Assembly (NCBI GenBank): GCA_000002445.1
Contig: CH464491.1
Location: forward strand, 128,001 to 192,000
Source of the DNA: Trypanosoma brucei
Lineage: Eukaryota
Reading direction: 5' to 3'
DNA length: 64,000 bases
Part shown: positions 49,535 through 64,000 of the stretch, piece after piece
How the letters are laid out: every line of letters starts with the position of its first letter
Position numbering within the stretch: position 1 is the first letter of the stretch
Notes under the pieces: model-generated
The model's database searches: none
The model's input: only the letters and a program-made list of their open reading frames with translations
What the model was told of the DNA's origin: nothing
Program-made: the position numbers and the translations under genes

Positions 49535-52500
49535 TTACTCGCGGGTTGATATTTCGCAGCAACCATTCACAATGCAAGGAGACGGCGATGCGCAAGCTCT
49601 CTTCCACCGTTCGCCAAGTGCCTCCTCTCGCGTCACGCCGCTGGAAGTGAATACGAACTGCAGCCCAATGCTCGCTTTCCTGCTTTCTATCTTTAGGACT
49701 GGTCGCCATAGCTCTCGTGCAGGCGGTTCGATAGCACTCAATGAGCCATTTGCTAGCGCAGTGGGGAGAGACGGCGAGTTGTTGAAAATCGACAGTTTCC
49801 TCATCGTTTTCTCCCGCATGGAGAGGTTCTTTAGTACACTCCGCGCACCAAGCTCCAGAACAATGCATTCCGCTCTGTAACTGCATGAGAGTTTCCCTGC
49901 TCCTGTCTTGGGTGCACAAATCAGCGTGTTGTTTCTATAGAGCAGGGCAGCTGCCCCGGACTTCTCACCGAGGGACACGGATCCATCAGTCCACAATTCG
50001 TAGTGCTCTCGTCGCGGTGGCTCCTTCCCCCTCCGTGCAAAATGCCGTGCAATCCACTTTTCGGAAGCCTCCCTTTTGACATCGTCAGGGTCATCAGCGC
50101 ACACAGGCTTTATCTGCGTGTGAAATATCGGTCGGCAGCTGTGGTGAAGCGTCGATGTCTCTAGTGGGTGCTCGCGTGGCTCAATGTGGAGGTGGGGGTA
50201 GAACCGCATGATGCGGGAATGTAAGACTCTGACTGGATGTTTGCTGTGGTATACTTCCTCAGCACTGCGCCGCAAACATCCGCCTCGTGACTCACACATC
50301 AGCATGAATTTCATGCTGCGCACAAGAGTGGCCGTCTTGAGTGGCAGGAGGTTTGCTTCCAGCAGAGAGTCCTCTTTGCGCGTCCCATGCTGTATGCCGG
50401 CTGTGATGCGACTGGCTTTGTGTTGTGCTGCTGCAAGGAGGTCGCGACTTCGTTTTGAAGCGTCCCAGTACCATACCTCAATGCCATGCATGGTGTGTGC
50501 CTGTACGAGTGCTAGATAAAAAGCTCTCAGCACTTGTCGTCTTGGCCCCCATGTAGAAGCTGAGATGGCTGCTATCTGCAGTAGTCGGAAGTCCATCTTG
50601 CGTCTCGTTTCGGCCGCATGTGTTGCCATCCCCTGCAGACTCTGGAATGTTACTCCAAGAAGCTTTAGTGTCCTGTCAGCTCCTATTCTTTTGCCGTCGA
50701 GTTGTAATGTAAGGGAGTGCCGCTCTATACACCCGAAGAGTGTGCACTTTGTTTTCGCTACGTTGACAGACATGAAGTACTCTTTTGACCACTGTAACAC
50801 CACGTTTAGACCGCATTGTAGTGTGTGGTTGATGACATCCCTCTCTGTGTGCCTCGCAAGTATCGTTAGGTCGTCTGCAAAGAATCCGTGCTGCAGTAAC
50901 GGCACTTCTGCAAGGCGTTGGCTCAACGAGTTCATGACAATAATGAACATGATTGGGCCAAGGACAGTTCCTTGTGGCACTCCTCGCTCAAATGTTCTGC
51001 TTCTGGAAAGCTTCTCCTTGAATCTCACTCTGCCAGTTCGGTTACTCAGAAATGATACGCACCACTTCACAATGTGGGGTGATACCTTCATTCTGTGCAT
51101 TTCCCTCGCAATTTTGTCGTGGTCTACTGTATCAAATGCCTTCTCGTAGTCAACGAATACAGCACCCGTACGAGATTGGTGCGTGGGGCGGCAGAGGGCA
51201 GCGCGGACGTGCAGGAGTTGTTCGAGCGTTGAGCATCCGGGGCGAAAGCCTGATTGCTGCGGCGTCAGCTGGGACTCAACAGTGTCTCTAAGTCTCGCGG
51301 CAATTATGCGCTCCATGACTTTGCAGAGACAGCTCGTGAGCGTCACAGGCCTGTAAGAATCGAGGTCCTCCGCCTTTTTTCCGGCCTTCAGGATGGGGAT
51401 GATAACACCAGTCTTCCATGCAGGCGGCACGACTCCCGTTCGTAGGCTCTCATTGAATAGCCTCAGAACAACATTCAGCGCTGTTCTACCGAGATGTTGC
51501 AGTGCCTCGTTGTATAAGCAATCAGGTCCGGCTGCGGATCCACTCGGTAGCAGTTTGATCGATCTCCGTAGTTCAGCCATCGTGATGGGACTGAACTCAC
51601 TCGCTATCGTCTTTATTGGTGCCGGTGGGTGTGAGTCGGTGTGCCTTCTTGCGCGGGACGAGTACAGTTTAATGAACCTCTCAGCTTGACGGTAGTCCGT
51701 GATGGCCGCGTTATCAACAAGTACAGCCGGTGTGGTTAGTGGTCGTGGCGCATATACCTTCTTGAAAATGTGCCAACTGCAGCGGTCTGACACCGCAAGT
51801 CTGGAGTATAGCGTGCTCCATCTCTTCTTTGTGATACGGTCCAGGATCTGCTTACGCGTGGCTACCAACTTTTCCCCTCGGTGGGAGGGTCCGCATCCAG
51901 CGATCTCTTCATCGAGTTTCGCGAGCTCAGGTGTCCAATGTGGTGACGTTGCTCTGCAGCCACGGGGGACGGAGACCTTCGTCGCAATGCGGATGGCGGA
52001 GCTCAATTTCTGTTCCAGGGTGTTGACGTTCTTCTTTCTACCAATTTTCCTGCAGTACTCGTCAACCTTCAGACGGAAATTCCTCCAGTCAGCTTTTAGC
52101 CATGCGTACATGGGCTTTCGAGGCCGCGGGCAGCTCAGCGCATCTGTGTCGTCTCCAACGATAACATCGAAAAATATGTGATGGTGATCGCTATTGGGAG
52201 AATGAAGCGATGTCCACGTGTACACTGTGCAATTCCTTGACAGTGTCACATCAGGGGTGGACTCCCCGTGGTGGCGCGCGTTCCTGGTGCACTCACCAGT
52301 GTTGCAGACCAGAAACTGGTTGTCAATGCGCCACTGTGTGAGGGTTTCACCCTTGGTATTTGGTGGGCTCGCGCGATCCGATGCCAACGCGTGTGCGTTA
52401 GCGTCTGCACCGATGAGCTGTGAACTTTCAGTCGTCAGAAGCGTATCTAGGTCAGTTGCCGTGAAGGTGTGTTTTGGTGGGATGTATGCCGACGTGACAG

Positions 52501-52843
52501 TCAGCGCCGTTCCACGTGCAAGGTGAATTGTTGCATGCACTTGTTCAATGCGACCAATAACATGCATACCGGTCTCGACTGGTAGGTCCTCCCTCACTAG
52601 TATTGATACACCACCTCCTTTGCAGTTACGAGCTATTCCGTGATGTTGGTAGCCAGCAACGCTAAAGCAAGCCGCCTCTCCAGGCGTCATCCTTGTCTCG
52701 CTCAACAGACAAAAGGCGATCCGCTCATCAACAAGGGTTTTGTGGAGTGCTAATCTCTTTCCTTGAGATAGCCCGGCGCAGTTACACTGAATCCCGCGCA
52801 ACGACGGGCCGGGATTCTCTTCCACATCACTGGACAGCAGCAT
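49535..52843 (-). CDS. ingi-type non-LTR retrotransposon ORF: 2A peptide - AP endonuclease - reverse transcriptase (1102 aa, C-terminal part frameshifted)
   Basis: ATG at 52843, MLLSSDVEENPGP (2A StopGo motif). APE/EEP motifs (LSETR, GADANAH, SDHHHI). RT motifs (QSGFRPGCST, FVDYEKAFDTV, RGVPQGTVLGP, FADDLTIL). The frame breaks after 49535, and RT/RNaseH-like sequence continues in other frames (49123-49919). Confidence 0.9.
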   Translation of the reverse strand: MLLSSDVEENPGPSLRGIQCNCAGLSQGKRLALHKTLVDERIAFCLLSETRMTPGEAACFSVAGYQHHGIARNCKGGGVSILVREDLPVETGMHVIGRIEQVHATIHLARGTALTVTSAYIPPKHTFTATDLDTLLTTESSQLIGADANAHALASDRASPPNTKGETLTQWRIDNQFLVCNTGECTRNARHHGESTPDVTLSRNCTVYTWTSLHSPNSDHHHIFFDVIVGDDTDALSCPRPRKPMYAWLKADWRNFRLKVDEYCRKIGRKKNVNTLEQKLSSAIRIATKVSVPRGCRATSPHWTPELAKLDEEIAGCGPSHRGEKLVATRKQILDRITKKRWSTLYSRLAVSDRCSWHIFKKVYAPRPLTTPAVLVDNAAITDYRQAERFIKLYSSRARRHTDSHPPAPIKTIASEFSPITMAELRRSIKLLPSGSAAGPDCLYNEALQHLGRTALNVVLRLFNESLRTGVVPPAWKTGVIIPILKAGKKAEDLDSYRPVTLTSCLCKVMERIIAARLRDTVESQLTPQQSGFRPGCSTLEQLLHVRAALCRPTHQSRTGAVFVDYEKAFDTVDHDKIAREMHRMKVSPHIVKWCVSFLSNRTGRVRFKEKLSRSRTFERGVPQGTVLGPIMFIIVMNSLSQRLAEVPLLQHGFFADDLTILARHTERDVINHTLQCGLNVVLQWSKEYFMSVNVAKTKCTLFGCIERHSLTLQLDGKRIGADRTLKLLGVTFQSLQGMATHAAETRRKMDFRLLQIAAISASTWGPRRQVLRAFYLALVQAHTMHGIEVWYWDASKRSRDLLAAAQHKASRITAGIQHGTRKEDSLLEANLLPLKTATLVRSMKFMLMCESRGGCLRRSAEEVYHSKHPVRVLHSRIMRFYPHLHIEPREHPLETSTLHHSCRPIFHTQIKPVCADDPDDVKREASEKWIARHFARRGKEPPRREHYELWTDGSVSLGEKSGAAALLYRNNTLICAPKTGAGKLSCSYRAECIVLELGARSVLKNLSMREKTMRKLSIFNNSPSLPTALANGSLSAIEPPARELWRPVLKIESRKASIGLQFVFTSSGVTREEALGERWKRACASPSPCIVNGCCEISTRE

Positions 52844-53390: not shown

Positions 53391-54049
53391 AAGTTAGGGC
53401 CTGTTTCCCTTTCTAAATCCCCTCAACTACTGTTGGTTAAAAGAATGCAGGGAGTAGAACCGGAGGGGGGAAGCGTCGGGTCCGCCCCGCGTGAAAGCGG
53501 CTGGGGCGTACGACAGGCTTCGCGAGCTGGGGGCGGTTGTGTTTCGCGTGGGTCCGTTATATTTACCCCTTCCGTTTGTATCTCCACTAAAGAGAAAGTG
53601 GTGTCCCGATCCACACTGTATTGCTTCGCCGTGTGCAATTGCTGTGCCGCTGGGGAGTGCCTTACGGCGTCGTGGGACCGACGTGGCTCGGGGACTTAAG
53701 GTGCGCCCTTAAACACCGTGGCTGCTGCCTGGTCATGTGTTTATGCTTTGCGATGTGAGGCATTGTGGGGTCGGGCCTTTATGCGGACCCCTGAGGCGTT
53801 AGTATGCTTGTTTCTCTCGATCCTCTCTGTTTGTGCGCGTATGTTTTCCCCCTCCATGTTTTAGGGAGGGCGGTGGATGGGGAGATGTCACTGAACAACG
53901 TAGCTGTTGATTATTGCTGCTATGTTATTTTATTTTCCTAAGGCCACATTGTGGTGCCTAAATACCTGGGTTATCGTCACGCGCATTTATCATTTTTCTA
54001 TTTAGCCTTTATAGCTGATCCTTCTTTCAAATACATTTGCTTGTTCTAG

Positions 54050-54053
<4 letters not shown>

Positions 54054-54110
<57 letters not shown>
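54054..54110. repeat. (TA)28 dinucleotide microsatellite
   Basis: 57 bp of perfect TA repeats, seen directly. Confidence 0.98.
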
Positions 54111-54113
<3 letters not shown>

Positions 54114-56549
54114 TGCAAATGGCATCTTGGTGCACTTGTTCCGTTGCCGGGGTGATTATTTTCAGAGCGTATATACACCGCTTGTGGGTGATCGCGGTTT
54201 CAAGCCGGTTTGCTTTTGTTTTTGAGGACATGTATTGGGGGTGTTACCACTTTTTTGTTAATTGATATTGTGCACTTTTTTGTTTCGGTAAAAAGAAAAA
54301 AAATGACAGTGATATTATTTTTTTTTTTCGCTTACCTTCTATACATATATATATACTTGTCGGTGATACGTGTTTGTGTTTGGTGCTGATAATGCTTGCG
54401 CTGGGAGTTTCTTTTGTTGGTGTTTGTTTTCTCTGTAAATAAGATCGGCTTTCATTTCACTAATAGTCCTTGTAATATATCTTTTTTTTCTTTTTTTTCT
54501 AGGGGGCCATTAGTGCATGTAAGGAGCACTCTTAAGGGAACTTTTGTCAGCAGAATAATCAATGGTAAGTGTTGTACTTTGGCCATTGCGAGTGCGCTGG
54601 ACTTTGGGAGCTGGTACTGATACTTCTGTCTTGACGGATTCAAAAAAAAGACAAAAAACTTCACAACTTTTTCCGAAAGAAAGTGAAGTTTATCCTCTCA
54701 AATCAAGTGCGGATCTGTCGCTTTGCACACGCGCTGGTTGACAATAGATCGATGAGTGACATGTCTGATCACCCTGTGGTGCGGGTCTTTATTAATTGTC
54801 TTGCTCTTTATTGATTCATCTGTGCTTTGGCGACGTAGGCGGAGTAGAGGATTGCCAATTCCGTCCTTTGGAATGGTTTACCGTCTTATTTTATTTTGTT
54901 AACCCAGTTGTCTTATGTGTAATCCTTTATCGGCCGGTGCGAGCTGTGGGTGGGATGCCGATCGTTTTTTCTTCTGCAACGGCAGAGAGTAGTGCTGATG
55001 GATATCGGTAAAGGGTGTTTGCTGCGTTGGTGAAGTGAGTATGTCGATGGAAGGGTACGCATATAATTAATATATCTGGTGCTTTTTCTTCTTATTGAGT
55101 AGCTTTTGAGAGCTCGGGACGGTAAAGTTAGTTGCCGCATTAGGTGTATGTTGTTCTGGTTAATTTCTGTTCAGATCCTTACGGTAAGCACGAAACCATT
55201 ACACCTGGTATGCTTTAATCCGTTAATTCAGGCGGTTCCACATTTGGTTCAATCACTGAAATACAGCTGAATTTTTAAATTCTTGTTTTAAAATTACCTC
55301 ACTTAATAAAAGGAAGGAAATGACACATCAAAGTAATGGAAATGCTGCATTGTACACCTGTGGGTGAGCTGATGAAGTAATAAAATATGGACCCGCGCGT
55401 TAAAGCCGTTTGTTTCCATCAGCAATGCCCTCGTGTCGGTTGTTTTCCCTTTTTGTCTTTCCATTATTCCACTGTAAGTAGTTTGCTTGAATTACGGTTT
55501 GATAAAAGGAACTGATTCACCTGGGTGTCTGCCGTAGTCGGAAGGGTGGGCGGAAACGTTGCTGTTTTCTGTGAGGTAGTTAACTCTTTGCTGCTATAAT
55601 CTTTACAATACCGTTTTAAGATGTGTATGTTATTTTTAGGTGTAGTTTCCTGGCATTTTTGTGGACAGATGATGTTTGTCTACGTTTATGGAACCAGTAA
55701 GTAGGAAAAGATGTATGAATTAACAAAAGGTATTTGTGCATCAGTGACTAGCGTTTTTTCCTCGTGTACAGTAATGTCTCTCTGGTACAGTTATTAATTG
55801 TTAGAGCGCGGTGCTGTGATCTCGGGTGTAACAACTGAATCTTTTTTTTGTTTCCTTGCTGAAGTGTATGGCTCTTTCTGGAATAACACATATGTAATTA
55901 TGCCATTGCTTACAGTGGAAGTAGGGGTGGCTAACATAATGATTTGTCCTTTTGATAACACTGTATTGAAGGAAGAATTATCGCTCTTTTAGTTTTCCTG
56001 TTCTTTGTCTGTGGTCTTGTAAGTTGGTGATATTGTGTATTAAGCTTTCAATTTTTCTTTATAATTTGCAGTAGGCAGTTGTCTCTTGCGGTCATTTGGC
56101 CTACGGTATAGGATGTGTTAAGGTGTAGCTCACGTAAGTAAAGTTCATGATCGAATTCTTTTTGATTTTCGTTTTCACACATTTGATCCTTAAAGACTTA
56201 CACATGCCCTCTTTTTCATTATTATTATCTTGTTCATGAGTTGATGCGACATTGGTGGGTAGGGTTAGATGACCTTTTCTCTTTGACGCAATATGTCGCG
56301 GTTGTTACGTTCGCTTAGACACCAACGTCTCTTGTTTGTTATTTATGTATATTTGGGTACAACCGTTTTTCATTCGTTTCCCTTTGTCTTATAGTAACTT
56401 CATATATATATATTAATTTTAACGAGTTTGTATTTTTGTTTTCCTTACAATTATTGTAACCTACCATTCGGTTTATCACCCATACTATTATTACCCTTAT
56501 TTTTCTTTCTTGATATAGACCTTGAGTTCTTCTGCTTTAAATCTACACA

Positions 56550-57050
56550 ATGTCTGACGATGAGGGACAGTTTGCCGAAGGCGGAGCGCAGGTGGGCTCT
56601 CTGACGTATCCGATGCAGGCAGGCGCTCTGAAAAAGGGCGGCTACATTTGCATTAATGGACGTCCGTGCAAGGTAATCGATCTTTCAGTGTCAAAAACTG
56701 GAAAACACGGTCATGCAAAGGTGAGCATCGTTGCCCTTGACATTTTCACCGGAAACAAGATGGAAGATCAGGCCCCCTCAACTCACAACGTTGAGGTGCC
56801 CTTCGTGAAAACTGCAACGTACAGCGTACTGGACATTCAGGAAGATCGTGAAGACCCCAGCAAGCCAGCTCACCTTTCGCTCATGGACGATGAGGGTGAG
56901 ACTCGGGATAACCTGGACATGCCTCCCAACGCGGAACTCGCAGGGCAAATCAAGGAACAGTTTGATGCAGGAAAGGACGTTTTGGTCGTTGTTGTTTCTG
57001 CTATGGGAATTGACCAGATTCTCAGTTTCAAGAATGCAGCTGAGCGATAA
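56550..57050 (+). CDS. EIF5A: Eukaryotic translation initiation factor 5A
   Basis: Hypusination loop [11 protein letters not shown] within [12 protein letters not shown]...[36 protein letters not shown]; 166 aa. ATG at 56550, preceded by a polypyrimidine tract (56494-56512) and an AG at 56517-56518. Confidence 0.93.
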
Positions 57051-57393: not shown

Positions 57394-60348
57394 ATGACAA
57401 GCAAACATAGTGCTGTATTAACTATAACCGAAAAGGGTGATTGGAGAACTGCGAAAAATGGCGAGAAGGTATGGCGGTATATGGTGCAAACGGCACCGAC
57501 GATGAGAGCTCGCTGCAGAAAATGTTCACAACCTATTTTAAAAGGTGACCTGAAATGGGGAACTCCTATACGTCATTCCCATGGAGCGTATGGGTGGATT
57601 ACCGCCTGGCATCATGTGGGGTGTACGAGAATTGCTGAACGTAAGGGCTTTAGTGACATAGTACATGGAATAGACTTACTTCCACCTGAGAAACGGGCGC
57701 AGGTCGTTGCGGAGGTGACATCCGACTCGATGCCTGAGCATTTACTACCTTTGAATCCTGACGATTTAGTAAAAAAACCTCTTCTTCCCGAAACTGAAGC
57801 ACCAGCTGAGTTGCTAAGACCACTTCTTCGTTATCAAAAGGAGGGTCTTGGCTGGATGGTGTCACAGGAGTTGTCTCAAGTTAAGGGGGGAATATTGGCT
57901 GATGAAATGGGTATGGGTAAAACAATCCAGATGATCAGTCTTTTTCTCGCCCGTCGCCTCGTGGGACCTACACTGGTTGTTTGCCCAGTTAGTTCAATGC
58001 TCCAGTGGGAATCTGAGGTGAAAGACCATGTGGTGTCCGGTTCCCTTTCGGTGGTAGTGGTGAGCCGTACCAAAAATGTGAGAAGGGATGATATTCAAAA
58101 TGCTGATGTGGTTTTGACTACGTATCCGATGCTCGAACAGTCTTGGAGGGAGCTAGTCAACAAGAAAAGAGTTCCATGCCCTTACTGCCAACAGCTTTAT
58201 TTGCCGCGGCAGCTTGTTGTGCACAATCGGTATTTTTGCGGGCCTCATGCAAAGAAAACTTCTAAACAGGCGAAGCGTGAAAAACGACAAGGTGGCACTG
58301 GTTCTTCTCCCACTCGAAAAGTTCAAGCAAAAGAAACGATTATGAAGGGGCTTCGTACGTTGCGTGTCGATGTTGACGATAACGCGGAGGAAGGGGAGGA
58401 TTCTGTGTTCGAGGAAGGACCACGGGGTGTTGTTGGACCAATGGGCTTGTATCGTGAGCTCATGGTTGAGGCCGGGCGCAAAGTTAGGAGCCGTTGGGAC
58501 CCCGCGTACGTGGGAAGTGACAGCAGTGGGGATACCAACAATTCTACCACAGAAAGTTCCACCTCATCGGAACGGGATGACTCAGAGGAGGTGTTGTCGA
58601 AAGAGGAGGTGGCCGATGACAAGCTTAGCTCGTTCCGGTGCTTGCACTGCGGGTTTCAGTTGCTACGATACCCGTTTTGCCCTAAGATAGGGCAATGTCA
58701 CGTTCTCTCTGATTATATGAAACAAATAATTGAGACTGACGACGGTAGTGACGGCGTTGACCTATCTCAATCAGTTTTCCACTCGGTAACCTGGAGTCGG
58801 ATTGTTCTGGACGAAGCTCATAGAATAAAAGGTAGCAACACAAGTACGTCAAGGGCTGCCTTTGCCTTGGTAGGTGAGCACAGGTGGTGCCTCACGGGAA
58901 CCCCTCTACAAAATCGTGTAGGGGATGTGTACAGCCTGGTTCGTTTTCTACGGTTGGCGCCTTATGCAAGGTATTATTGTGGAACTGAGGGGTGCTCCTG
59001 CTCGTCCTTTTCTCATCCATTTTCTGGAAATGATTTACGACACTGTATATTTTGTGGTCATGGACCGGTCCAACATTATGCTTATTTTAATCGCCATATT
59101 TTAAATCCTATAATACGTTATGGTTACGTTGGCGACGGCAGGCGGGGAATGATGATGCTCTCTAATGAAATCCTCCAGAAGTGTATGCTGAGGAGGACGA
59201 AGGCCGAAAGAGCAAGCGACTTGCACTTGCCGCCAATGACCGTGGAAACGTTCCAAGTAAAGCTGACCGATGAGGAGAGAAGCTTCTATGAGTCGTTGTA
59301 CAAAAAAAGCACTGCCGCTTTTGATACCTTTGTTGAGAAAGGAACGGTGCTTCATAACTATGCCCACATCTTTCAACTTTTGAGTCGTTTGAGGCAGGCT
59401 TTGGATCACCCACTGATTGTCATTAATTCTATGAATGTCGGTGGCTCGTCGTGCTCGAAGGGGATGTGTGGAATTTGCACTGAGAGTTGTGGAGAGAACT
59501 CAGTACAGGTTGACCCTTGTAAGCATACCTTCCACCGGATTTGTCTTTCGCAATTTGTCGAAAGCCAACCTTTAAAGGAATATAATTGCCCTGTGTGTTA
59601 TGTGGCTATCAACATCGACCTGCGGAGTCTACACTCAGGGTGGGACGAAGACGGTGCCCAACCTGTTCTTCCTCCAGAGTTAGTTCACTCAGACAACGAA
59701 AGCGATGAAAACAACGTTGAGGAGGAAAGTAAAGGGAGGAAACTAGATGATTCTGCGGAGGGGAAATCCGCTCGAGCGAGATCGGTCAAGAAACGAGGCA
59801 TACTCTCCCGGATTGATTCATCAAAACCTCTTCGAGGGACGAAACTGGATGCCATAACAGAATACATTTGCAGCATTCCAGAGGAGGAAAAGGTAATTGT
59901 GTTTTCTCAATTTGGGGATACTCTGGACCTCATTCAGTTGTGGTTACAGAAGGTGAAAGTAAAGACGGTGAAACTTGTGGGGTCGCTCATGTTATCGCAG
60001 CGGCAAGCGGTTCTCAGGGCTTTCTTGCATGATAAGAGCGTTCGAGCCATCCTTATTTCTCTCAAGGCCGGTGGGGAGGGTTTAAATTTACAAATTGCTA
60101 ACCATGTTGTACTTGTTGATCCTTGGTGGAATCCCGCGGTTGAAATGCAGGCGGCGCAGCGAGCCCATCGTATTGGGCAGACGCGACCCGTTCGCGTGGT
60201 CCGTTTTGTCACTGAACGTTCTGTAGAGGAGCGCATGTTGGAGTTACAAGAAAAGAAGATGCTGGTTATTGAGGGGACTATCGATGGTAAGGTAAGTTCG
60301 CTGCAGAGTCTTAGCGAGGATGATCTTCAGTTTCTGTTCACGAGGTAG
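57394..60348 (+). CDS. SNF2-family DNA-dependent ATPase with N-terminal PARP-type zinc finger and embedded RING finger (RAD5/RAD16-like)
   Basis: zf-PARP-like N-terminus (ARCRKCSQPILKGDLKWG...GWITAWHHVGC). SNF2 motifs LADEMGMGKTIQ (I), DEAHRIK (II), LTGTPLQN (III) and helicase-C SLKAGGEGLNLQIANHVVLVDPWWNPAVEMQAAQRAHRIGQTRPV. C3HC4-type RING CGICTESC...CKHTFHRICL...CPVC between the helicase lobes. Confidence 0.88.
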   Translation: MTSKHSAVLTITEKGDWRTAKNGEKVWRYMVQTAPTMRARCRKCSQPILKGDLKWGTPIRHSHGAYGWITAWHHVGCTRIAERKGFSDIVHGIDLLPPEKRAQVVAEVTSDSMPEHLLPLNPDDLVKKPLLPETEAPAELLRPLLRYQKEGLGWMVSQELSQVKGGILADEMGMGKTIQMISLFLARRLVGPTLVVCPVSSMLQWESEVKDHVVSGSLSVVVVSRTKNVRRDDIQNADVVLTTYPMLEQSWRELVNKKRVPCPYCQQLYLPRQLVVHNRYFCGPHAKKTSKQAKREKRQGGTGSSPTRKVQAKETIMKGLRTLRVDVDDNAEEGEDSVFEEGPRGVVGPMGLYRELMVEAGRKVRSRWDPAYVGSDSSGDTNNSTTESSTSSERDDSEEVLSKEEVADDKLSSFRCLHCGFQLLRYPFCPKIGQCHVLSDYMKQIIETDDGSDGVDLSQSVFHSVTWSRIVLDEAHRIKGSNTSTSRAAFALVGEHRWCLTGTPLQNRVGDVYSLVRFLRLAPYARYYCGTEGCSCSSFSHPFSGNDLRHCIFCGHGPVQHYAYFNRHILNPIIRYGYVGDGRRGMMMLSNEILQKCMLRRTKAERASDLHLPPMTVETFQVKLTDEERSFYESLYKKSTAAFDTFVEKGTVLHNYAHIFQLLSRLRQALDHPLIVINSMNVGGSSCSKGMCGICTESCGENSVQVDPCKHTFHRICLSQFVESQPLKEYNCPVCYVAINIDLRSLHSGWDEDGAQPVLPPELVHSDNESDENNVEEESKGRKLDDSAEGKSARARSVKKRGILSRIDSSKPLRGTKLDAITEYICSIPEEEKVIVFSQFGDTLDLIQLWLQKVKVKTVKLVGSLMLSQRQAVLRAFLHDKSVRAILISLKAGGEGLNLQIANHVVLVDPWWNPAVEMQAAQRAHRIGQTRPVRVVRFVTERSVEERMLELQEKKMLVIEGTIDGKVSSLQSLSEDDLQFLFTR

Positions 60349-60701: not shown

Positions 60702-61928
60702 ATGGGTGTTTCGCTACCAAAGCCTGTCATGACGCACCTGCGGGAGCGCTGCGGGAATGACATATTTCGTTGCGGCTCTAGTTGCGTTAACGGATACCGA
60801 GAAAGTATGGAAGATGCACATCTCGTCTACCTTCAACCTTCATGGGGGTTCTTCGGTGTTTTCGACGGTCATGTTAACGATAATTGTTCACAATTTTTGG
60901 AAGGTGCTTGGAGGTCTGCCCTTGAGAAGGAAAGCATGCCCATGTCGGATGACCGCATGAAGGAGCTTACTCTCGCCATTGACAAAGAATGGATGGACAA
61001 GGCCTGTGATGGTGGGAGTACGGGTACCTTTTTCGTTGGCATGAAAGAAAACAACACCGTTCATCTGCAGGTGGGGAACGTGGGTGACTCGCGTGTTTTG
61101 GTTTGCGTTGACGGTAAAGCCAGGGCTATGACGGAGGATCACAAGCCGAACAACGCAGATGAAAGACGCCGAATCGAGGAGTGCGGTGGTCGTGTGGAAA
61201 GCAACCGCGTGGATGGAAGTCTAGCTGTAAGTCGGGCCTTCGGAGATCGGGACTATAAGGCAAATCCAAGTGGTGGCCAGCTTTCGCAGAAGGTCATCGC
61301 TCTCCCAGATGTGACTCATGTGGACGTGACTTGGGATAGCAAAGACTTCGCCGTACTATGTTGTGATGGTGTTTTTGAAGGTCAATTTTCCAATGAAGAG
61401 GTTGTGGACTTTATTAAGGAACAGATGGAACAAACGGATGACCTCGGCCTCATAGCCGGAAGAGTTTGCGAAGAGGCTGTCAATCGCGGTAGTCGCGACA
61501 ATGTGTCCTGTGTCATCGTCCAGTTTAAGAGCGGCAAAGATTATGCAACAGCCGAGCACCTGGAGGTAGTTCCCGGACCGTTTTCCGTCCCCCGCAACGG
61601 TACTTTCCGCAAGGTGTACAGTCTCATGGCGGAGAAGGGGGGCATGACAACGCAAGAGGTGCTAGAAAAGCGTTACGACTATCTGGCATCCCTGGAGGAT
61701 AAGACAGCGCATATGGAAGAGTGGAAGGGCTTCAAGGATGGTCCACCGGCGAACCTGGAGGGAAAGGAGCGCACGGAATGGTTTTCTGAGCTCTTCGAGC
61801 AGTACGCAGCGGAAACTCCGTCAGACCCCAGGTCGGACAACATGGAGCGCATCCAAATGCTGCAGCAGCAGATAGGCATTCCGTTGCCCATGTTGCTTTC
61901 CATTATGTCGGGGCAGTCGGAAGAATGA
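60702..61928 (+). CDS. Protein phosphatase 2C (PPM family) with C-terminal extension
   Basis: PP2C motifs FGVFDGH, GSTGTFFVG, GNVGDSRVLV, DHKPNNADERRRIEECGGRV, SLAVSRAFGD, DGVFE, SRDNVSCVIVQF. Confidence 0.9.
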   Translation: MGVSLPKPVMTHLRERCGNDIFRCGSSCVNGYRESMEDAHLVYLQPSWGFFGVFDGHVNDNCSQFLEGAWRSALEKESMPMSDDRMKELTLAIDKEWMDKACDGGSTGTFFVGMKENNTVHLQVGNVGDSRVLVCVDGKARAMTEDHKPNNADERRRIEECGGRVESNRVDGSLAVSRAFGDRDYKANPSGGQLSQKVIALPDVTHVDVTWDSKDFAVLCCDGVFEGQFSNEEVVDFIKEQMEQTDDLGLIAGRVCEEAVNRGSRDNVSCVIVQFKSGKDYATAEHLEVVPGPFSVPRNGTFRKVYSLMAEKGGMTTQEVLEKRYDYLASLEDKTAHMEEWKGFKDGPPANLEGKERTEWFSELFEQYAAETPSDPRSDNMERIQMLQQQIGIPLPMLLSIMSGQSEE

Positions 61929-61934
61929 GTCCAC

Positions 61935-61982
61935 ATGTGTGTCTGTGCGTGTGCGTGTGCGTGTGCGTGTGCGTGTGTGCTT
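61935..61982. repeat. (GTGTGC)/(TGCGTG)n hexanucleotide repeat immediately downstream of the PP2C stop
   Basis: tgtgtgtctgtgcgtgtgcgtgtgcgtgtgcgtgtgcgtgtgtgc, seen directly. Confidence 0.9.
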
Positions 61983-64000
61983 GTATTTCGTGCGACGAAG
62001 GGGGGACTTGGTGGAGGTTACCAGGGTTTATCTATGAAAATGGCACCCGTCGGGAAGTCGTCTAATCGCTGTTGGAGGTATGCAGAGGCAAACAACAAGA
62101 TGATTTCGTTTATATCCACAGGTGTTGCTAGTTGTTTGACCACACGAAGTACCCGGGGGTGTAGCAGCTCCAACTTAATCAACAGCCGAAAATGTGACTC
62201 GACATATTTGTGCGGCCAAGGCCAGTGTGCTTGTATGCTTGCCTTCTGCCATACTTGGTCGTCTCGGTATGCCCGGTTGTATGTATTTAGGCAAAGGTCA
62301 ACTTTATATATGTACGTTTCTCGTAAGGGCGCCTCTATATATGTTATATATATATATATATGTATACATATACGCATATATATATATCATTTGTTTACTT
62401 TTAAAGAGGATTAAAGATGAGAGGCAAATGCTAAGGAAGGTTGGGGCGACGCTTAGTATTGAGTTTTGGATGACGTGGACAACGTGAATAGAGGAGGTAA
62501 TGTGATTCCCGCCGTGTGGCAACCTGGGATTGTGGCAATCCAAAACTGTGTTTCTACTCACGCAGGAGGAGGGAGGGGAACCGCAGATGGGAGATGAGGC
62601 AACCCGAGCAGTGGCGACATTTTTGATACACTGACCGACAAAACCTCTTGAACTGGAAGAGTAGCGCGAACCGGTGATCACACACTAATTGGAACTCAGT
62701 CATCATTGACCGCGCTTCCGAATGCCCTTTTTTATATGGGTCCGAATTCTGCACTTCCCTGGTTTAAGCTTGTGGTTGCATACAGGCGCATTTTCCCTTT
62801 TATTTCCCGCCCTATTTTTTCACTATTTCGCTGCTGTGTACAGTTTTATCATTCTGAACCGCGCGTTTGATCGCAACCTGTCGTAGTTCATTGTGCCGAC
62901 TATATTGTTGTAGGACCAATTTTTGGCAACAAAACGATGGGAGGAAAAGAGAACAGGTGGAGAAGGAATGCGCTCGACAGTGGGCGCATCAGAGGAGGAA
63001 CTACCACACAAGGTGGTTTGAATGTGGATGGAAACCGTCTCTGTTTGTGGTAGCGAAGGTGCTTCTCCAACGCTTCCTCTACCGTCTGTCACTCACCTTC
63101 TGATATGCAAAAGGGGCAAAAAAAAACACCAATCGGTAGCACATGCATTTTTTTCTTTTAAGGGGGGGGGGAGTCGTAGAGTGTGGCAATGACGTTCCAA
63201 TTTGCGTGATGCCATACCAACACTTCTTTTTTTTTTTTTGCCCTATTGACGCCTGTAAAACCTTTTCGAGGTCACTATGGTGGAAGAAAGGGTGCCGTTG
63301 GTTCTCTTTTCCATGCCACGGGCCATTCGTGATGGAATTGGAACTACCTCCCCTTGAGCGTGCTCCCCTGTCGACTTTGTTGTGACATGCGGTGCCAGAG
63401 TGTGTTAGTGGTTGTTGAACCAAAGAAATATGAAACTACGTGTTTGGACCTTTTAAGATTTTTGTTCCAGCTTAGCTTTTTCGGTCTTTGTTCTCCTGCT
63501 GCTTTTGGTGGCTGTACTGGGGTGCAGAAGTGCGTTCTTTTAGTGTGTTTCTAACCCCCAGAGACCTGTTGTCAGAGAGAGGAAAGAAAGAGCATACACA
63601 TATATCTATATATCTGCATTTATATGTATATGTATATATGTGTGATGACCTTTATGTGTTGTACACACTTAAGCACCGACGCGCAAACGCATGAGCACAC
63701 CCGCGAGGATGGGTGTGGGCTCATTTTACACATGTTGTCTAGGTTAGGTGGTGGGAGAATGGAGGAGGTGAAGGGAAGGGAGGAAGAAGAGGAATGGGAG
63801 AAGCGGTGAGAAAGAGTAAGTGAAGTGTGCTGGAGTAGTAACCTTCGAGAGCATGGTGTGCGACGTTGTGCCTCTTATGCAACATTTATAACTAAGGGCT
63901 TCGTAACTTCCTTTTTGTGTTGGTCCGGTTAGGCCGGTGAGCGGGTGAGAGAATTAACCATGAAAAGGAGAAAACAGGAAGAGGGGAAAAGGAAAAGGAA

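Follow-up and report, generated by a model that had tools for sequence, protein, structure and literature searches.

What kind of protein is encoded at positions 57394..60348 on the plus strand, where an N-terminal PARP-type zinc finger meets a SNF2 motor and a RING finger, and what might the finger do there? The window, by which we mean the whole 64,000-nucleotide stretch of Trypanosoma brucei DNA that was analysed, holds at these coordinates a complete ORF with an ATG start and a stop codon. Its 984-aa product, which we annotate as a RAD16-subfamily SNF2 ATPase and putative RING E3 with an N-terminal PARP-type finger, is 100% identical over its full length to a protein of T. b. gambiense DAL972 that is annotated as 'DNA repair protein, putative'. 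The ORF is the syntenic copy of Tb927.11.750; its upstream neighbour, eIF5A, is Tb927.11.740. Because eIF5A (56550..57050) is the sole convincing plus-strand gene that separates 57394..60348 from the last ORF on the minus strand, a retroelement at 49535..52843, the earlier description of our gene as the second of a plus-strand unit holds. The sign of the GC skew flips near 50 kb of the window.

We searched the whole protein with Pfam hmmscan and judged domains by their gathering cutoffs, which four of them exceeded: zf-PARP, a split SNF2-rel_dom, zf-RING_2 and Helicase_C. SNF2-rel_dom (203.8 bits, cutoff 24.9) was matched in three stretches, the best being the first part of the N-lobe (aa 147-252, 57832..58149), which contains motif I, GMGKT (aa 173-177, 57910-57924), with G173, G175, K176 and T177 invariant. 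A second part (aa 455-680, 58756..59433) holds motif II, DEAH (aa 473-476), and motif III, TGTPLQN (aa 501-507). The RING-H2 finger (aa 691-735, 59464..59598; 31.3 bits against a cutoff of 27.3) comes next, then the Helicase_C lobe (aa 817-928, 59842..60177; 77.6 bits) and motif VI, QRAHRIGQ (aa 922-929, 60157-60180). Motifs I, II, III and VI are invariant across 94 homologues, and all eight RING ligands (C692, C695, C709, H711, H714, C717, C732 and C735) are conserved in the alignment; in the full-length structure model (pTM 0.79), the RING region has a pLDDT of 89-95. All four domain calls of the sequence-only reading were thus correct. Since the SNF2 N-lobe ends at about aa 680 and Helicase_C begins at aa 817, its placement of the RING between the lobes also stands, while its description of that site as motif VI-proximal was loose. 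A Ser/Gly/Glu-rich insertion (aa 298-398, 58285..58587), which cannot be aligned, varies in length between lineages and has a pLDDT of 35-62, is probably a disordered linker.

This layout had been treated as noteworthy; it is in fact already known from public annotation and three papers. The domain set of Tb927.11.750 was published in 2015, and a 2017 RNAi screen labelled the gene 'rad16/rhp16?'. Our analysis therefore alters the genome annotation little, because the gene was on record before, as were the four domains and the likeness to RAD16.

The protein had been assigned a RAD5/RAD16-type layout, which is right as a grouping; bit scores, a tree and a cysteine module place it specifically in the RAD16 subfamily. 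Named yeast RAD16 proteins scored 442-455 bits, versus at most 305 bits for Ris1, SMARCA-like and HLTF-like proteins. In a neighbour-joining tree, a distance method applied here with an outgroup named in part and without curated SHPRH and S. cerevisiae RAD5, the split between a RAD16 clade that includes the named yeast RAD16 and the Ris1/HLTF-like tier was recovered in 97-99 of 100 bootstraps; S. cerevisiae Rad16 and S. pombe Rhp16 fall on the same side as the trypanosome protein, and the HLTF/Ris1-like tier lies outside the clade. Several relatives are annotated as RAD16 or rhp16 in their source databases. Downstream of motif III lies a Cys/His module (58978..59076) in which C529, C534, C536, C551, C554, H556 and H561 are invariant and which matched no Pfam family. 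We built an HMM from aa 520-585, a signature derived here rather than a curated definition, and with it two named yeast RAD16 proteins scored 51-54 bits; it matched nearly all upper-tier proteins and gave zero matches among proteins outside the RAD16 clade, Ris1/HLTF-like relatives included. Being common to yeast RAD16 and missing in Ris1/HLTF-like proteins, the module is a marker of the RAD16 clade. By these comparisons of sequence, the subfamily is RAD16, not RAD5, and the protein is almost certainly the T. brucei RAD16/Rhp16 orthologue.

Yeast RAD16 shares with it the order of split SNF2, interlobe RING and Helicase_C as well as the Cys/His module, but has neither the zf-PARP finger nor a CCHC knuckle described below. 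Published maps of yeast and Arabidopsis RAD16 are limited to SNF2, a C3HC4 RING and Helicase_C, whereas the trypanosome RING is a RING-H2.

The finger had also been read as standing in place of a HIRAN domain. We found no Pfam match to HIRAN in the whole protein even at E <= 10, and the N-terminus is fully explained by zf-PARP, leaving no HIRAN. In the finger-less RAD16-clade proteins that are named or complete (yeasts, a plant, a red alga and a choanoflagellate), no match to the finger HMM turned up ahead of the SNF2 core. To our knowledge, HIRAN is not a RAD16 feature. Since these finger-less proteins gave no such match and HIRAN is not a known trait of the subfamily, the finger does not replace HIRAN.

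The comparison with Rad5 nevertheless raises an alternative of function, namely that a protein of RAD16 descent acts as an analogue of RAD5/HLTF in damage tolerance at stalled forks: the finger would engage a nick or DNA end in the way HIRAN engages the nascent-strand 3' end, while remodelling of the fork would fall to the motor and polyubiquitination of PCNA to the RING. We consider this unlikely. Rad5 and HLTF do combine an N-terminal module that binds DNA ends with a SNF2 motor that has a RING between its lobes, and among the matches listed the solved structure closest to the whole protein in sequence and fold is K. lactis Rad5. The fold search cannot tell RAD16 from RAD5, however, because no Rad16 entry is among the matches listed, which is most likely the only reason for Rad5's top rank. 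The tree and the shared cysteine module put the protein firmly in RAD16, and in contrast to Rad5/HLTF it lacks HIRAN, carries the RAD16-specific Cys module and misses no RAD16 feature.

We next consider the finger itself (aa 33-105, 57490..57708), which is supported by Pfam, PDB alignments, conservation and fold. In the whole protein PF00645 scored 43.7 bits (E 4.9e-11), covering profile positions 2-84 of 87, and the N-terminal 143 aa alone gave 47.6 bits and no other Pfam match; both values exceed the cutoff of 39.3, so that the HMM search on whose failure the call was to be dropped upheld it. The signature quoted for it, C-x2-C...WHH-x2-C, is present as C41-x2-C44-x29-H74-x2-C77 (57514-57624), with WHHVGC at aa 72-77. 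The four zinc ligands C41, C44, H74 and C77 are kept in 92, 93, 94 and 94 of the 94 homologues, respectively. In a phmmer search of PDB sequences, the finger aligned with human PARP1 Zn1 and Zn2, with chain 1v9x, which we take to be the Arabidopsis PARP finger, and with DNA ligase III, all four ligands being in register with each. An AlphaFold model of aa 1-145 reached a pLDDT of 92.7. Searched against the PDB with Foldseek, it gave 28 matches at E <= 0.001, all of them PARP-type fingers (PARP1 Zn1/Zn2, the plant finger 1v9x or Lig3), with the next match at E 0.36; superposition on such fingers gave TM values up to 0.81 and an rmsd of 1.8-2.2 Å. As modelled, aa 1-145 have the PARP-finger fold. 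The finger thus resembles those of PARP1 and DNA ligase III-alpha in fold, in its C-x2-C-x(28-30)-H-x2-C spacing and in a basic grip position, but differs from them in being single and fused to a motor and an E3 instead of an ADP-ribosyl transferase or ligase.

Is this finger likely to contact DNA as its relatives do? Position 54, K54 in T. brucei, is R or K in all 94 homologues and aligns (phmmer) with the Arg of 'SLRMA' in PARP1 Zn1. This Arg is presumably Arg34, which Langelier and colleagues are said to have identified in 2011 as a backbone-grip residue. Y66 and I69 fall in a loop aligned with the base-stacking loop of PARP1 Zn2; the hydrophobic-loop residues G67, I69 and W72 are kept in 71-82 of the 94 homologues. 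Where PARP1 Zn1 has its base-stacking Phe44, however, the trypanosome finger has Ala65; our guess from the alignment is that the nearby aromatics Y66 and W68 could replace it. The missing Phe is one ground for supposing that the finger anchors the protein to DNA or chromatin in general, or gates the ATPase from within the molecule, and does not favour strand interruptions. The predicted full-length structure, at its pTM, is compatible with a finger packed on the motor, and yeast, plant and red-alga RAD16 function without one. Set against this are the invariably basic grip position and the conserved loop, as well as the modelled fold, which deviates from DNA-bound PARP1 fingers by about 2 Å on superposition. 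Moreover, every zf-PARP finger known to us to have been characterised (PARP1 Zn1 and Zn2, Lig3, plant ZDP) binds DNA discontinuities, and we regard a mere anchor or gate as distinctly improbable.

The best overall explanation, which we favour with some reserve, is that the protein is the finger-bearing form of the RAD16/Rhp16 orthologue, with a finger-anchored motor and E3. As a SNF2-family motor it would translocate on dsDNA, and the RING-H2 finger between its ATPase lobes would act as a ubiquitin ligase. As in PARP1 and DNA ligase III, the finger would bind discontinuities of the duplex (nicks, gaps, ends or unstacked bases) and so anchor or recruit the enzyme at damage or repair intermediates; the motor would then translocate on DNA or apply torsion, and the RING would ubiquitinate a neighbouring repair factor, the target in yeast being Rad4/XPC. 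Anchoring at nicks or breaks through the finger, which is argued by analogy, comes close to an even call without quite reaching it. Direct recruitment to strand breaks, proposed in the sequence-only reading, is plausible because PARP-type fingers act so in PARP1 and ligase III. A related logic is found in ALC1/CHD1L, a SNF2 remodeller that reaches breaks via a macrodomain binding poly(ADP-ribose), the product of PARP1, and that turned up as a structural neighbour of the trypanosome motor. Both tie a SNF2 motor to break signalling, but ALC1 has no RING and reads PAR indirectly, whereas the trypanosome sensor would touch DNA itself. Yeast Rad7-Rad16 has been reviewed as a DNA translocase and ATP-dependent damage binder and as a component of the E3 for which Rad4 is a ubiquitination target. 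Typical of the RAD16 subfamily are a complex with a Rad7-like LRR protein and a cullin/elongin C E3, and a need for the protein when non-transcribed DNA is repaired, as in GG-NER of UV lesions.

We then asked whether the finger is an addition to RAD16 or, as seems more likely, an ancestral part of it. Finger-bearing RAD16 was found in kinetoplastids, diplonemids, apicomplexans, chromerids, dinoflagellates, stramenopiles, one haptophyte and prasinophyte green algae, and the pathogens with this form include Trypanosoma, Leishmania, Babesia and Phytophthora; according to the literature, Toxoplasma carries it as well. Some relatives listed without PF00645 might have been genuine finger-less close kin, but the alignment exposed them as truncated gene models: P0074, P0056 and P0059 begin inside the finger, and P0030 begins inside the SNF2 core, at MVRQE. 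In the neighbour-joining tree, the finger-bearing forms were monophyletic in 0 of 100 bootstraps and make up deep grades of the RAD16 clade. The score of 0 of 100 for an 'opisthokont' group carries no meaning, because the group was defined without several sequences nested in it. From the sequences, with a distance tree whose internal branches are unsupported and with some gene models truncated, the finger was probably present in RAD16 from early on, with later losses in opisthokonts, in land plants and in red algae. What is known of RAD16 comes mostly from yeast and to some extent from Arabidopsis, both finger-less; our comparison suggests that the finger-bearing protein is a widespread and probably the older form. 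A direct sensor of DNA discontinuities on RAD16 would offer a handle on the long-standing problem of how the RAD16 complex finds damage or acts at incision.

The one piece of experimental support for recruitment to strand breaks is indirect and comes from alkylation damage. Damage by MMS is processed via nicked intermediates; rad5 is classically linked to sensitivity to MMS, and yeast rad16 to sensitivity to UV rather than MMS. The sole phenotype recorded for the trypanosome gene departs from that of yeast rad16: it is sensitivity to MMS, seen in a pooled screen, and our search found no UV data for the gene. In T. brucei brucei, RNAi of Tb927.11.750 in this screen led to a 3.2-fold depletion under MMS (T/C 1.115; Tm/T 0.315), the third lowest value in the authors' DNA-repair list, where it adjoins several translesion Pol kappa genes. 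This position, together with the classic rad5 phenotype, would favour the RAD5-like role at stalled forks, and so would two gaps in the literature: the lists of T. brucei repair genes and helicases curated in the screen paper contain no RAD5, HLTF, SHPRH or RAD18 label, although a missing RAD5 label is no proof of absence from T. brucei, and our search for papers on a kinetoplastid RAD5 or HIRAN protein found none, the names matching only rad50, rad51 and rad54. Against that role, XPC, the partner of RAD16 in the yeast pathway, is a comparable hit in the same MMS screen (Tm/T 0.419). The pooled-screen data fit a non-essential role of the RAD16 orthologue in surviving alkylation damage, alongside XPC.

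How far the yeast model applies is a further point. In T. brucei, XPC and DDB, which are factors of global-genome NER, showed no involvement in the repair of UV or cisplatin damage, and the yeast GG-NER model may therefore not transfer. In trypanosomes XPC is essential, yet not a UV sensor, and genome sequencing found no DDB2, XPA or CSA orthologue. RAD16 is unmentioned in the main trypanosome NER papers, and RAD7 in the T. brucei NER papers examined and the gene lists of the MMS screen. With NER this unusual, RAD16 unmentioned and an MMS hit stronger than that of XPC, Tb927.11.750 is a cheap and well-defined candidate for reverse genetics. One could go further and suppose that the finger was the original lesion or nick sensor of early eukaryotic RAD16, that the yeast form is derived and that trypanosome RAD16 is the missing recogniser of damage or strand breaks; we hold this to be rather doubtful. 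Finger-bearing RAD16 would then feed an XPC-linked global repair that responds to alkylation and crosslinks, and it might couple DNA damage or chromatin state to the decision for stumpy quiescence.

Such a coupling is distinct from a mainly developmental role, in which the protein would act not in repair but as a chromatin or transcription factor for quorum-sensing slender-to-stumpy differentiation. This is very unlikely. A 2015 review gives 'Hyp 9' as a hit in the stumpy-induction screen, but names HYP1 and HYP2 alone as individually validated. The pooled hit could stem from altered growth arrest under genotoxic or nucleotide-analogue selection; moreover, the gene is kept far outside stumpy-forming organisms, and Tb927.11.750 has a separate DNA-damage phenotype.

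Two further cysteine modules lie within the protein. A CCHC knuckle in the N-lobe, C262-x2-C265-x11-H277-x4-C282 (58177..58239), is invariant in 94 of 94 homologues and has a pLDDT of about 94; it was found in protist, plant and red-alga RAD16 and went undetected in opisthokont RAD16. Its ligand spacing had led us to suspect a UBZ4 of the Rad18 type, which we rejected as the Pfam and PDB matches were noise (zf-Di19 at E 0.17 and LIM at E 0.4); no described family matched it in Pfam at E <= 10 or in a PDB sequence search. The second, a Cys cluster, FRCLHCGFQLLRYPFCPKIGQCH (aa 414-436, 58633..58701), matched no Pfam family and is missing in Perkinsela; it occurs only in the trypanosomatid-like rows of our alignment (A1), with a pLDDT of about 87-91.

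The open reading frame at 57394..60348 on the plus strand starts with ATG and encodes a protein of 984 aa, which the sequence-only reading had described as combining zf-PARP, SNF2, RING and Helicase_C domains. This description was borne out by Pfam, in which all four domains exceeded their gathering cutoffs: zf-PARP (PF00645) at aa 33-105 (43.7 bits against a cutoff of 39.3, E = 4.9e-11; 47.6 bits for the isolated N-terminus), a SNF2 domain in three separate stretches, zf-RING_2 at aa 691-735 and Helicase_C at aa 817-928. The Pfam search of the whole protein gave no match to HIRAN.

The zinc-ligand pattern of the finger is C41-x2-C44-x29-H74-x2-C77, and in a PDB sequence alignment all ligands are in register with those of human PARP1 Zn1 and Zn2, chain 1v9x, which we take to be the Arabidopsis PARP finger, and DNA ligase III. 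As an independent check, we modelled aa 1-145 from an alignment of 26 homologues (pLDDT 92.7) and performed a PDB fold search. Each of the 28 matches at E <= 0.001 was to a PARP-type finger, in several cases one bound to DNA. TM reached 0.81, rmsd was 1.8-2.2 A, and the 29th match had E = 0.36. The ligands C41, C44, H74 and C77 are kept in 92, 93, 94 and 94 of 94 homologues, respectively. Together, the Pfam score, ligand register, fold search and conservation confirm the PARP-type finger well beyond chance. Position 54 is Arg or Lys in all 94 homologues and aligns with the Arg in 'SLRMA' of PARP1 Zn1, and Y66 and I69 align with L and I in the 'LGMIDRW' loop of Zn2; their partners are presumably the backbone-grip and base-stacking residues (Langelier et al. 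2011). G56, P58, G67, I69 and W72 are kept in 71-91 of the 94 homologues, and Ala65 lies opposite PARP1 Zn1 Phe44. We consider it improbable that the finger acts only as an anchor lacking specificity or as a module for regulation.

Scanning 1.84 billion representative proteins yielded matches in three score tiers. Above about 480 bits are protist proteins, mostly finger-bearing. Among those at about 370-470 bits are two from yeasts that bear the name 'DNA repair protein RAD16' (Brettanomyces, 455 bits; Lodderomyces, 442 bits), together with mucoromycete, choanoflagellate, red-alga and water-lily proteins. The tier at 305 bits or less includes Penicillium Ris1 and a SMARCA-named protein of Balamuthia. 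The family's conserved Cys/His modules were turned into small HMMs, which were run on all retrieved proteins. The HMM of a Cys/His-rich module following motif III (C529, C534, C536, C551, C554, H556 and H561; aa 529-561, 58978..59076, plus strand), for which Pfam has no model, scored 51-54 bits with named yeast RAD16 and matched nearly all proteins of the upper two tiers, but none of those outside the RAD16 clade of an NJ tree, Ris1/HLTF-like relatives included. In this tree (114 proteins, 546 well-aligned columns), one clade unites all module-bearing proteins, including the T. brucei protein and yeast RAD16, with 97-99 of 100 bootstraps separating it from the tier at 305 bits or less. Relatives are also named RAD16 or rhp16 in several independent source annotations. 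By these sequence comparisons the protein is a RAD16-subfamily member and almost certainly a RAD16 orthologue, and the post-motif-III module may be of practical use for recognising RAD16 proteins. The previously proposed 'RAD5/RAD16-type layout' thus stands as a grouping but was too broad and, on the module HMM and the bootstraps, narrows to RAD16; with this placement, the framing of zf-PARP as a substitute for HIRAN is to be dropped. Among the matches listed, the best solved one is K. lactis Rad5, which most likely reflects nothing more than the lack of a Rad16 entry in that listing. A RAD5-like action at stalled forks, with the finger in HIRAN's role, is an unlikely reading. The comparisons show RAD16 ancestry for a protein whose ATPase, RING-H2 and PARP-type finger are all intact.

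Two further Cys/His modules were identified by alignment. A CCHC knuckle at aa 262-282 (58177..58239, plus strand; C262, C265, H277 and C282, C-x2-C-x11-H-x4-C) is invariant in 94 of 94 homologues. It has no Pfam family or solved-structure match, and we predict that it is an undescribed small zinc module. In the module HMM scan of retrieved proteins it was found in protist, plant and red-alga RAD16 and went undetected in opisthokont RAD16. The Cys cluster FRCLHCGFQLLRYPFCPKIGQCH (aa 414-436, 58633..58701, plus strand), which matched no described family, is confined in the alignment to trypanosomatid-like sequences, Perkinsela being without it, and lies within an otherwise disordered insertion with pLDDT of about 87-91. 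The full-length model (mean pLDDT 81.3, pTM 0.79) renders all Cys/His modules as structured with confidence, with low-confidence linkers at aa 298-398 and aa 754-793.

The four-domain set is present in all trypanosomatids sampled, Perkinsela and Diplonema; in Babesia, Porospora and Vitrella; in Symbiodinium, Durusdinium, Effrenium and Polykrikos; in Aureococcus and Phytophthora; in Diacronema; and in Micromonas and Chloropicon. A published Toxoplasma SNF2 inventory draws zf-PARP and RING for its SNF2 set, with a legend that leaves their placement in the same protein unstated. Four homologues listed without PF00645 are N-terminally truncated gene models, because in the alignment P0074, P0056 and P0059 start within the finger and P0030 (Angomonas) within the SNF2 core; owing to their short length and 84-91% coverage, we suspect the same of P0007 (T. 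congolense, 899 aa) and P0008 (T. grayi, 834 aa). The HMM scan found no finger in complete RAD16 of yeast, mucoromycete, choanoflagellate, land plant or red alga, and published yeast and Arabidopsis RAD16 domain maps likewise lack it. Finger-bearing proteins were monophyletic in 0 of 100 bootstraps and occupy deep grades of the NJ tree, in which opisthokont RAD16 and that of plants and red algae form nested groups. The simplest reading is that the finger is old and was later lost in some lineages, yeast RAD16 being a reduced form; because internal branches are unsupported, we put this forward as an inference.

A Trypanosoma brucei gambiense DAL972 protein annotated 'DNA repair protein, putative' and encoded on a 4.5-Mb contig matches the protein with 100% identity from end to end. 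We strongly infer that the gene corresponds by synteny to Tb927.11.750 of T. brucei brucei, because eIF5A, its upstream neighbour, is Tb927.11.740, Tb927.11.750 bears the same product name (Stortz et al. 2017 tables) and the published domain list is the same. The feature is already annotated and noted in print: the architecture is precomputed in a public protein collection and spelled out in the product name of one NCBI record, a T. cruzi E3-ligase inventory includes zf-PARP and SNF2_N among RING-protein domains, and supplementary tables label Tb927.11.750 'rad16/rhp16?' and 'rad16-like?' (Stortz et al. 2017). In the pooled MMS RIT-seq screen of that study, the gene scored 76.8 in the control, 85.65 after 5 days of RNAi and 26.95 upon RNAi with MMS. 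The T/C ratio of 1.115 therefore indicates no growth defect from RNAi alone in the pooled screen, and the Tm/T ratio of 0.315 corresponds to a 3.2-fold depletion under MMS, third in the DNA-repair list and ahead of XPC at 0.419. The main text reports three uncharacterised DNA helicases below 0.5 under MMS, and Tb927.11.750 is among the three rows <0.5 in the S2 helicase sheet; for MMS, global-genome NER factors weigh more than transcription-coupled ones (Stortz et al. 2017). Besides this MMS-sensitivity result, the gene is 'Hyp 9' of a quorum-sensing (stumpy-induction) RNAi screen, according to a 2015 review. A mainly developmental role seems very improbable. RAD16 and RAD7 are never named in the main T. 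brucei NER papers, and our literature search found no paper testing the finger or treating finger-bearing RAD16 as a class.

Rad7-Rad16 generates superhelical torsion and is required for a post-incision step. [quoted passage not shown] We tentatively propose, at somewhat less than even likelihood, that in finger-bearing RAD16 the finger would dock on a strand interruption or unstacked bases and anchor the enzyme at one end as its motor pulls on or twists the DNA; this docking would also place the RING beside XPC or another substrate. The ability to sense nicks would be apt for incision intermediates and for the nicked base-excision intermediates that MMS yields, in keeping with the MMS phenotype of Tb927.11.750. 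Recruitment to strand breaks via the finger, as suggested from sequence earlier, is reasonable, if unproven. Beyond what was in print, our analysis adds fold-level confirmation of the finger, a RAD16-specific Cys module as clade marker, the breadth of finger-bearing RAD16 with yeast RAD16 as a probable reduced form, and a domain logic tied to the existing MMS phenotype. The finding itself is unsurprising, and Tb927.11.750 is a good candidate for focused reverse genetics.

The placement of the gene as second in its plus-strand unit was upheld by the ORF and Pfam layout and by the GC skew, whose sign flips near 50 kb in the window. The gene follows that of eIF5A (56550..57050, plus strand, Pfam-confirmed); an ORF scan found no convincing genes in the ~3.7 kb 5' of eIF5A, and further upstream lies a minus-strand ORF of 1102 aa (49535..52843) with Exo_endo_phos_2 (Endonuclease-reverse transcriptase) and RVT_1 domains. 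This ORF looks like a non-LTR retroelement bordering the strand-switch region, presumably of the ingi/L1Tc type. Its N-terminal MLLSSDVEENPGPS is a 2A-like 'DxExNPGP' motif. The strand-switch region also contains a long TA-rich repeat (54037..54225) translating as YIYIYIYI. Downstream, a plus-strand gene encodes a PP2C phosphatase of 408 aa (60702..61928, Pfam 188 bits); because it directly adjoins a gene scored in RNAi-library screens, one may speculate that RNAi fragments spill over between the two. Directly 3' of the PP2C gene is a (CA)n tract (about 61935..61990) translating as CVCACACACACAC.
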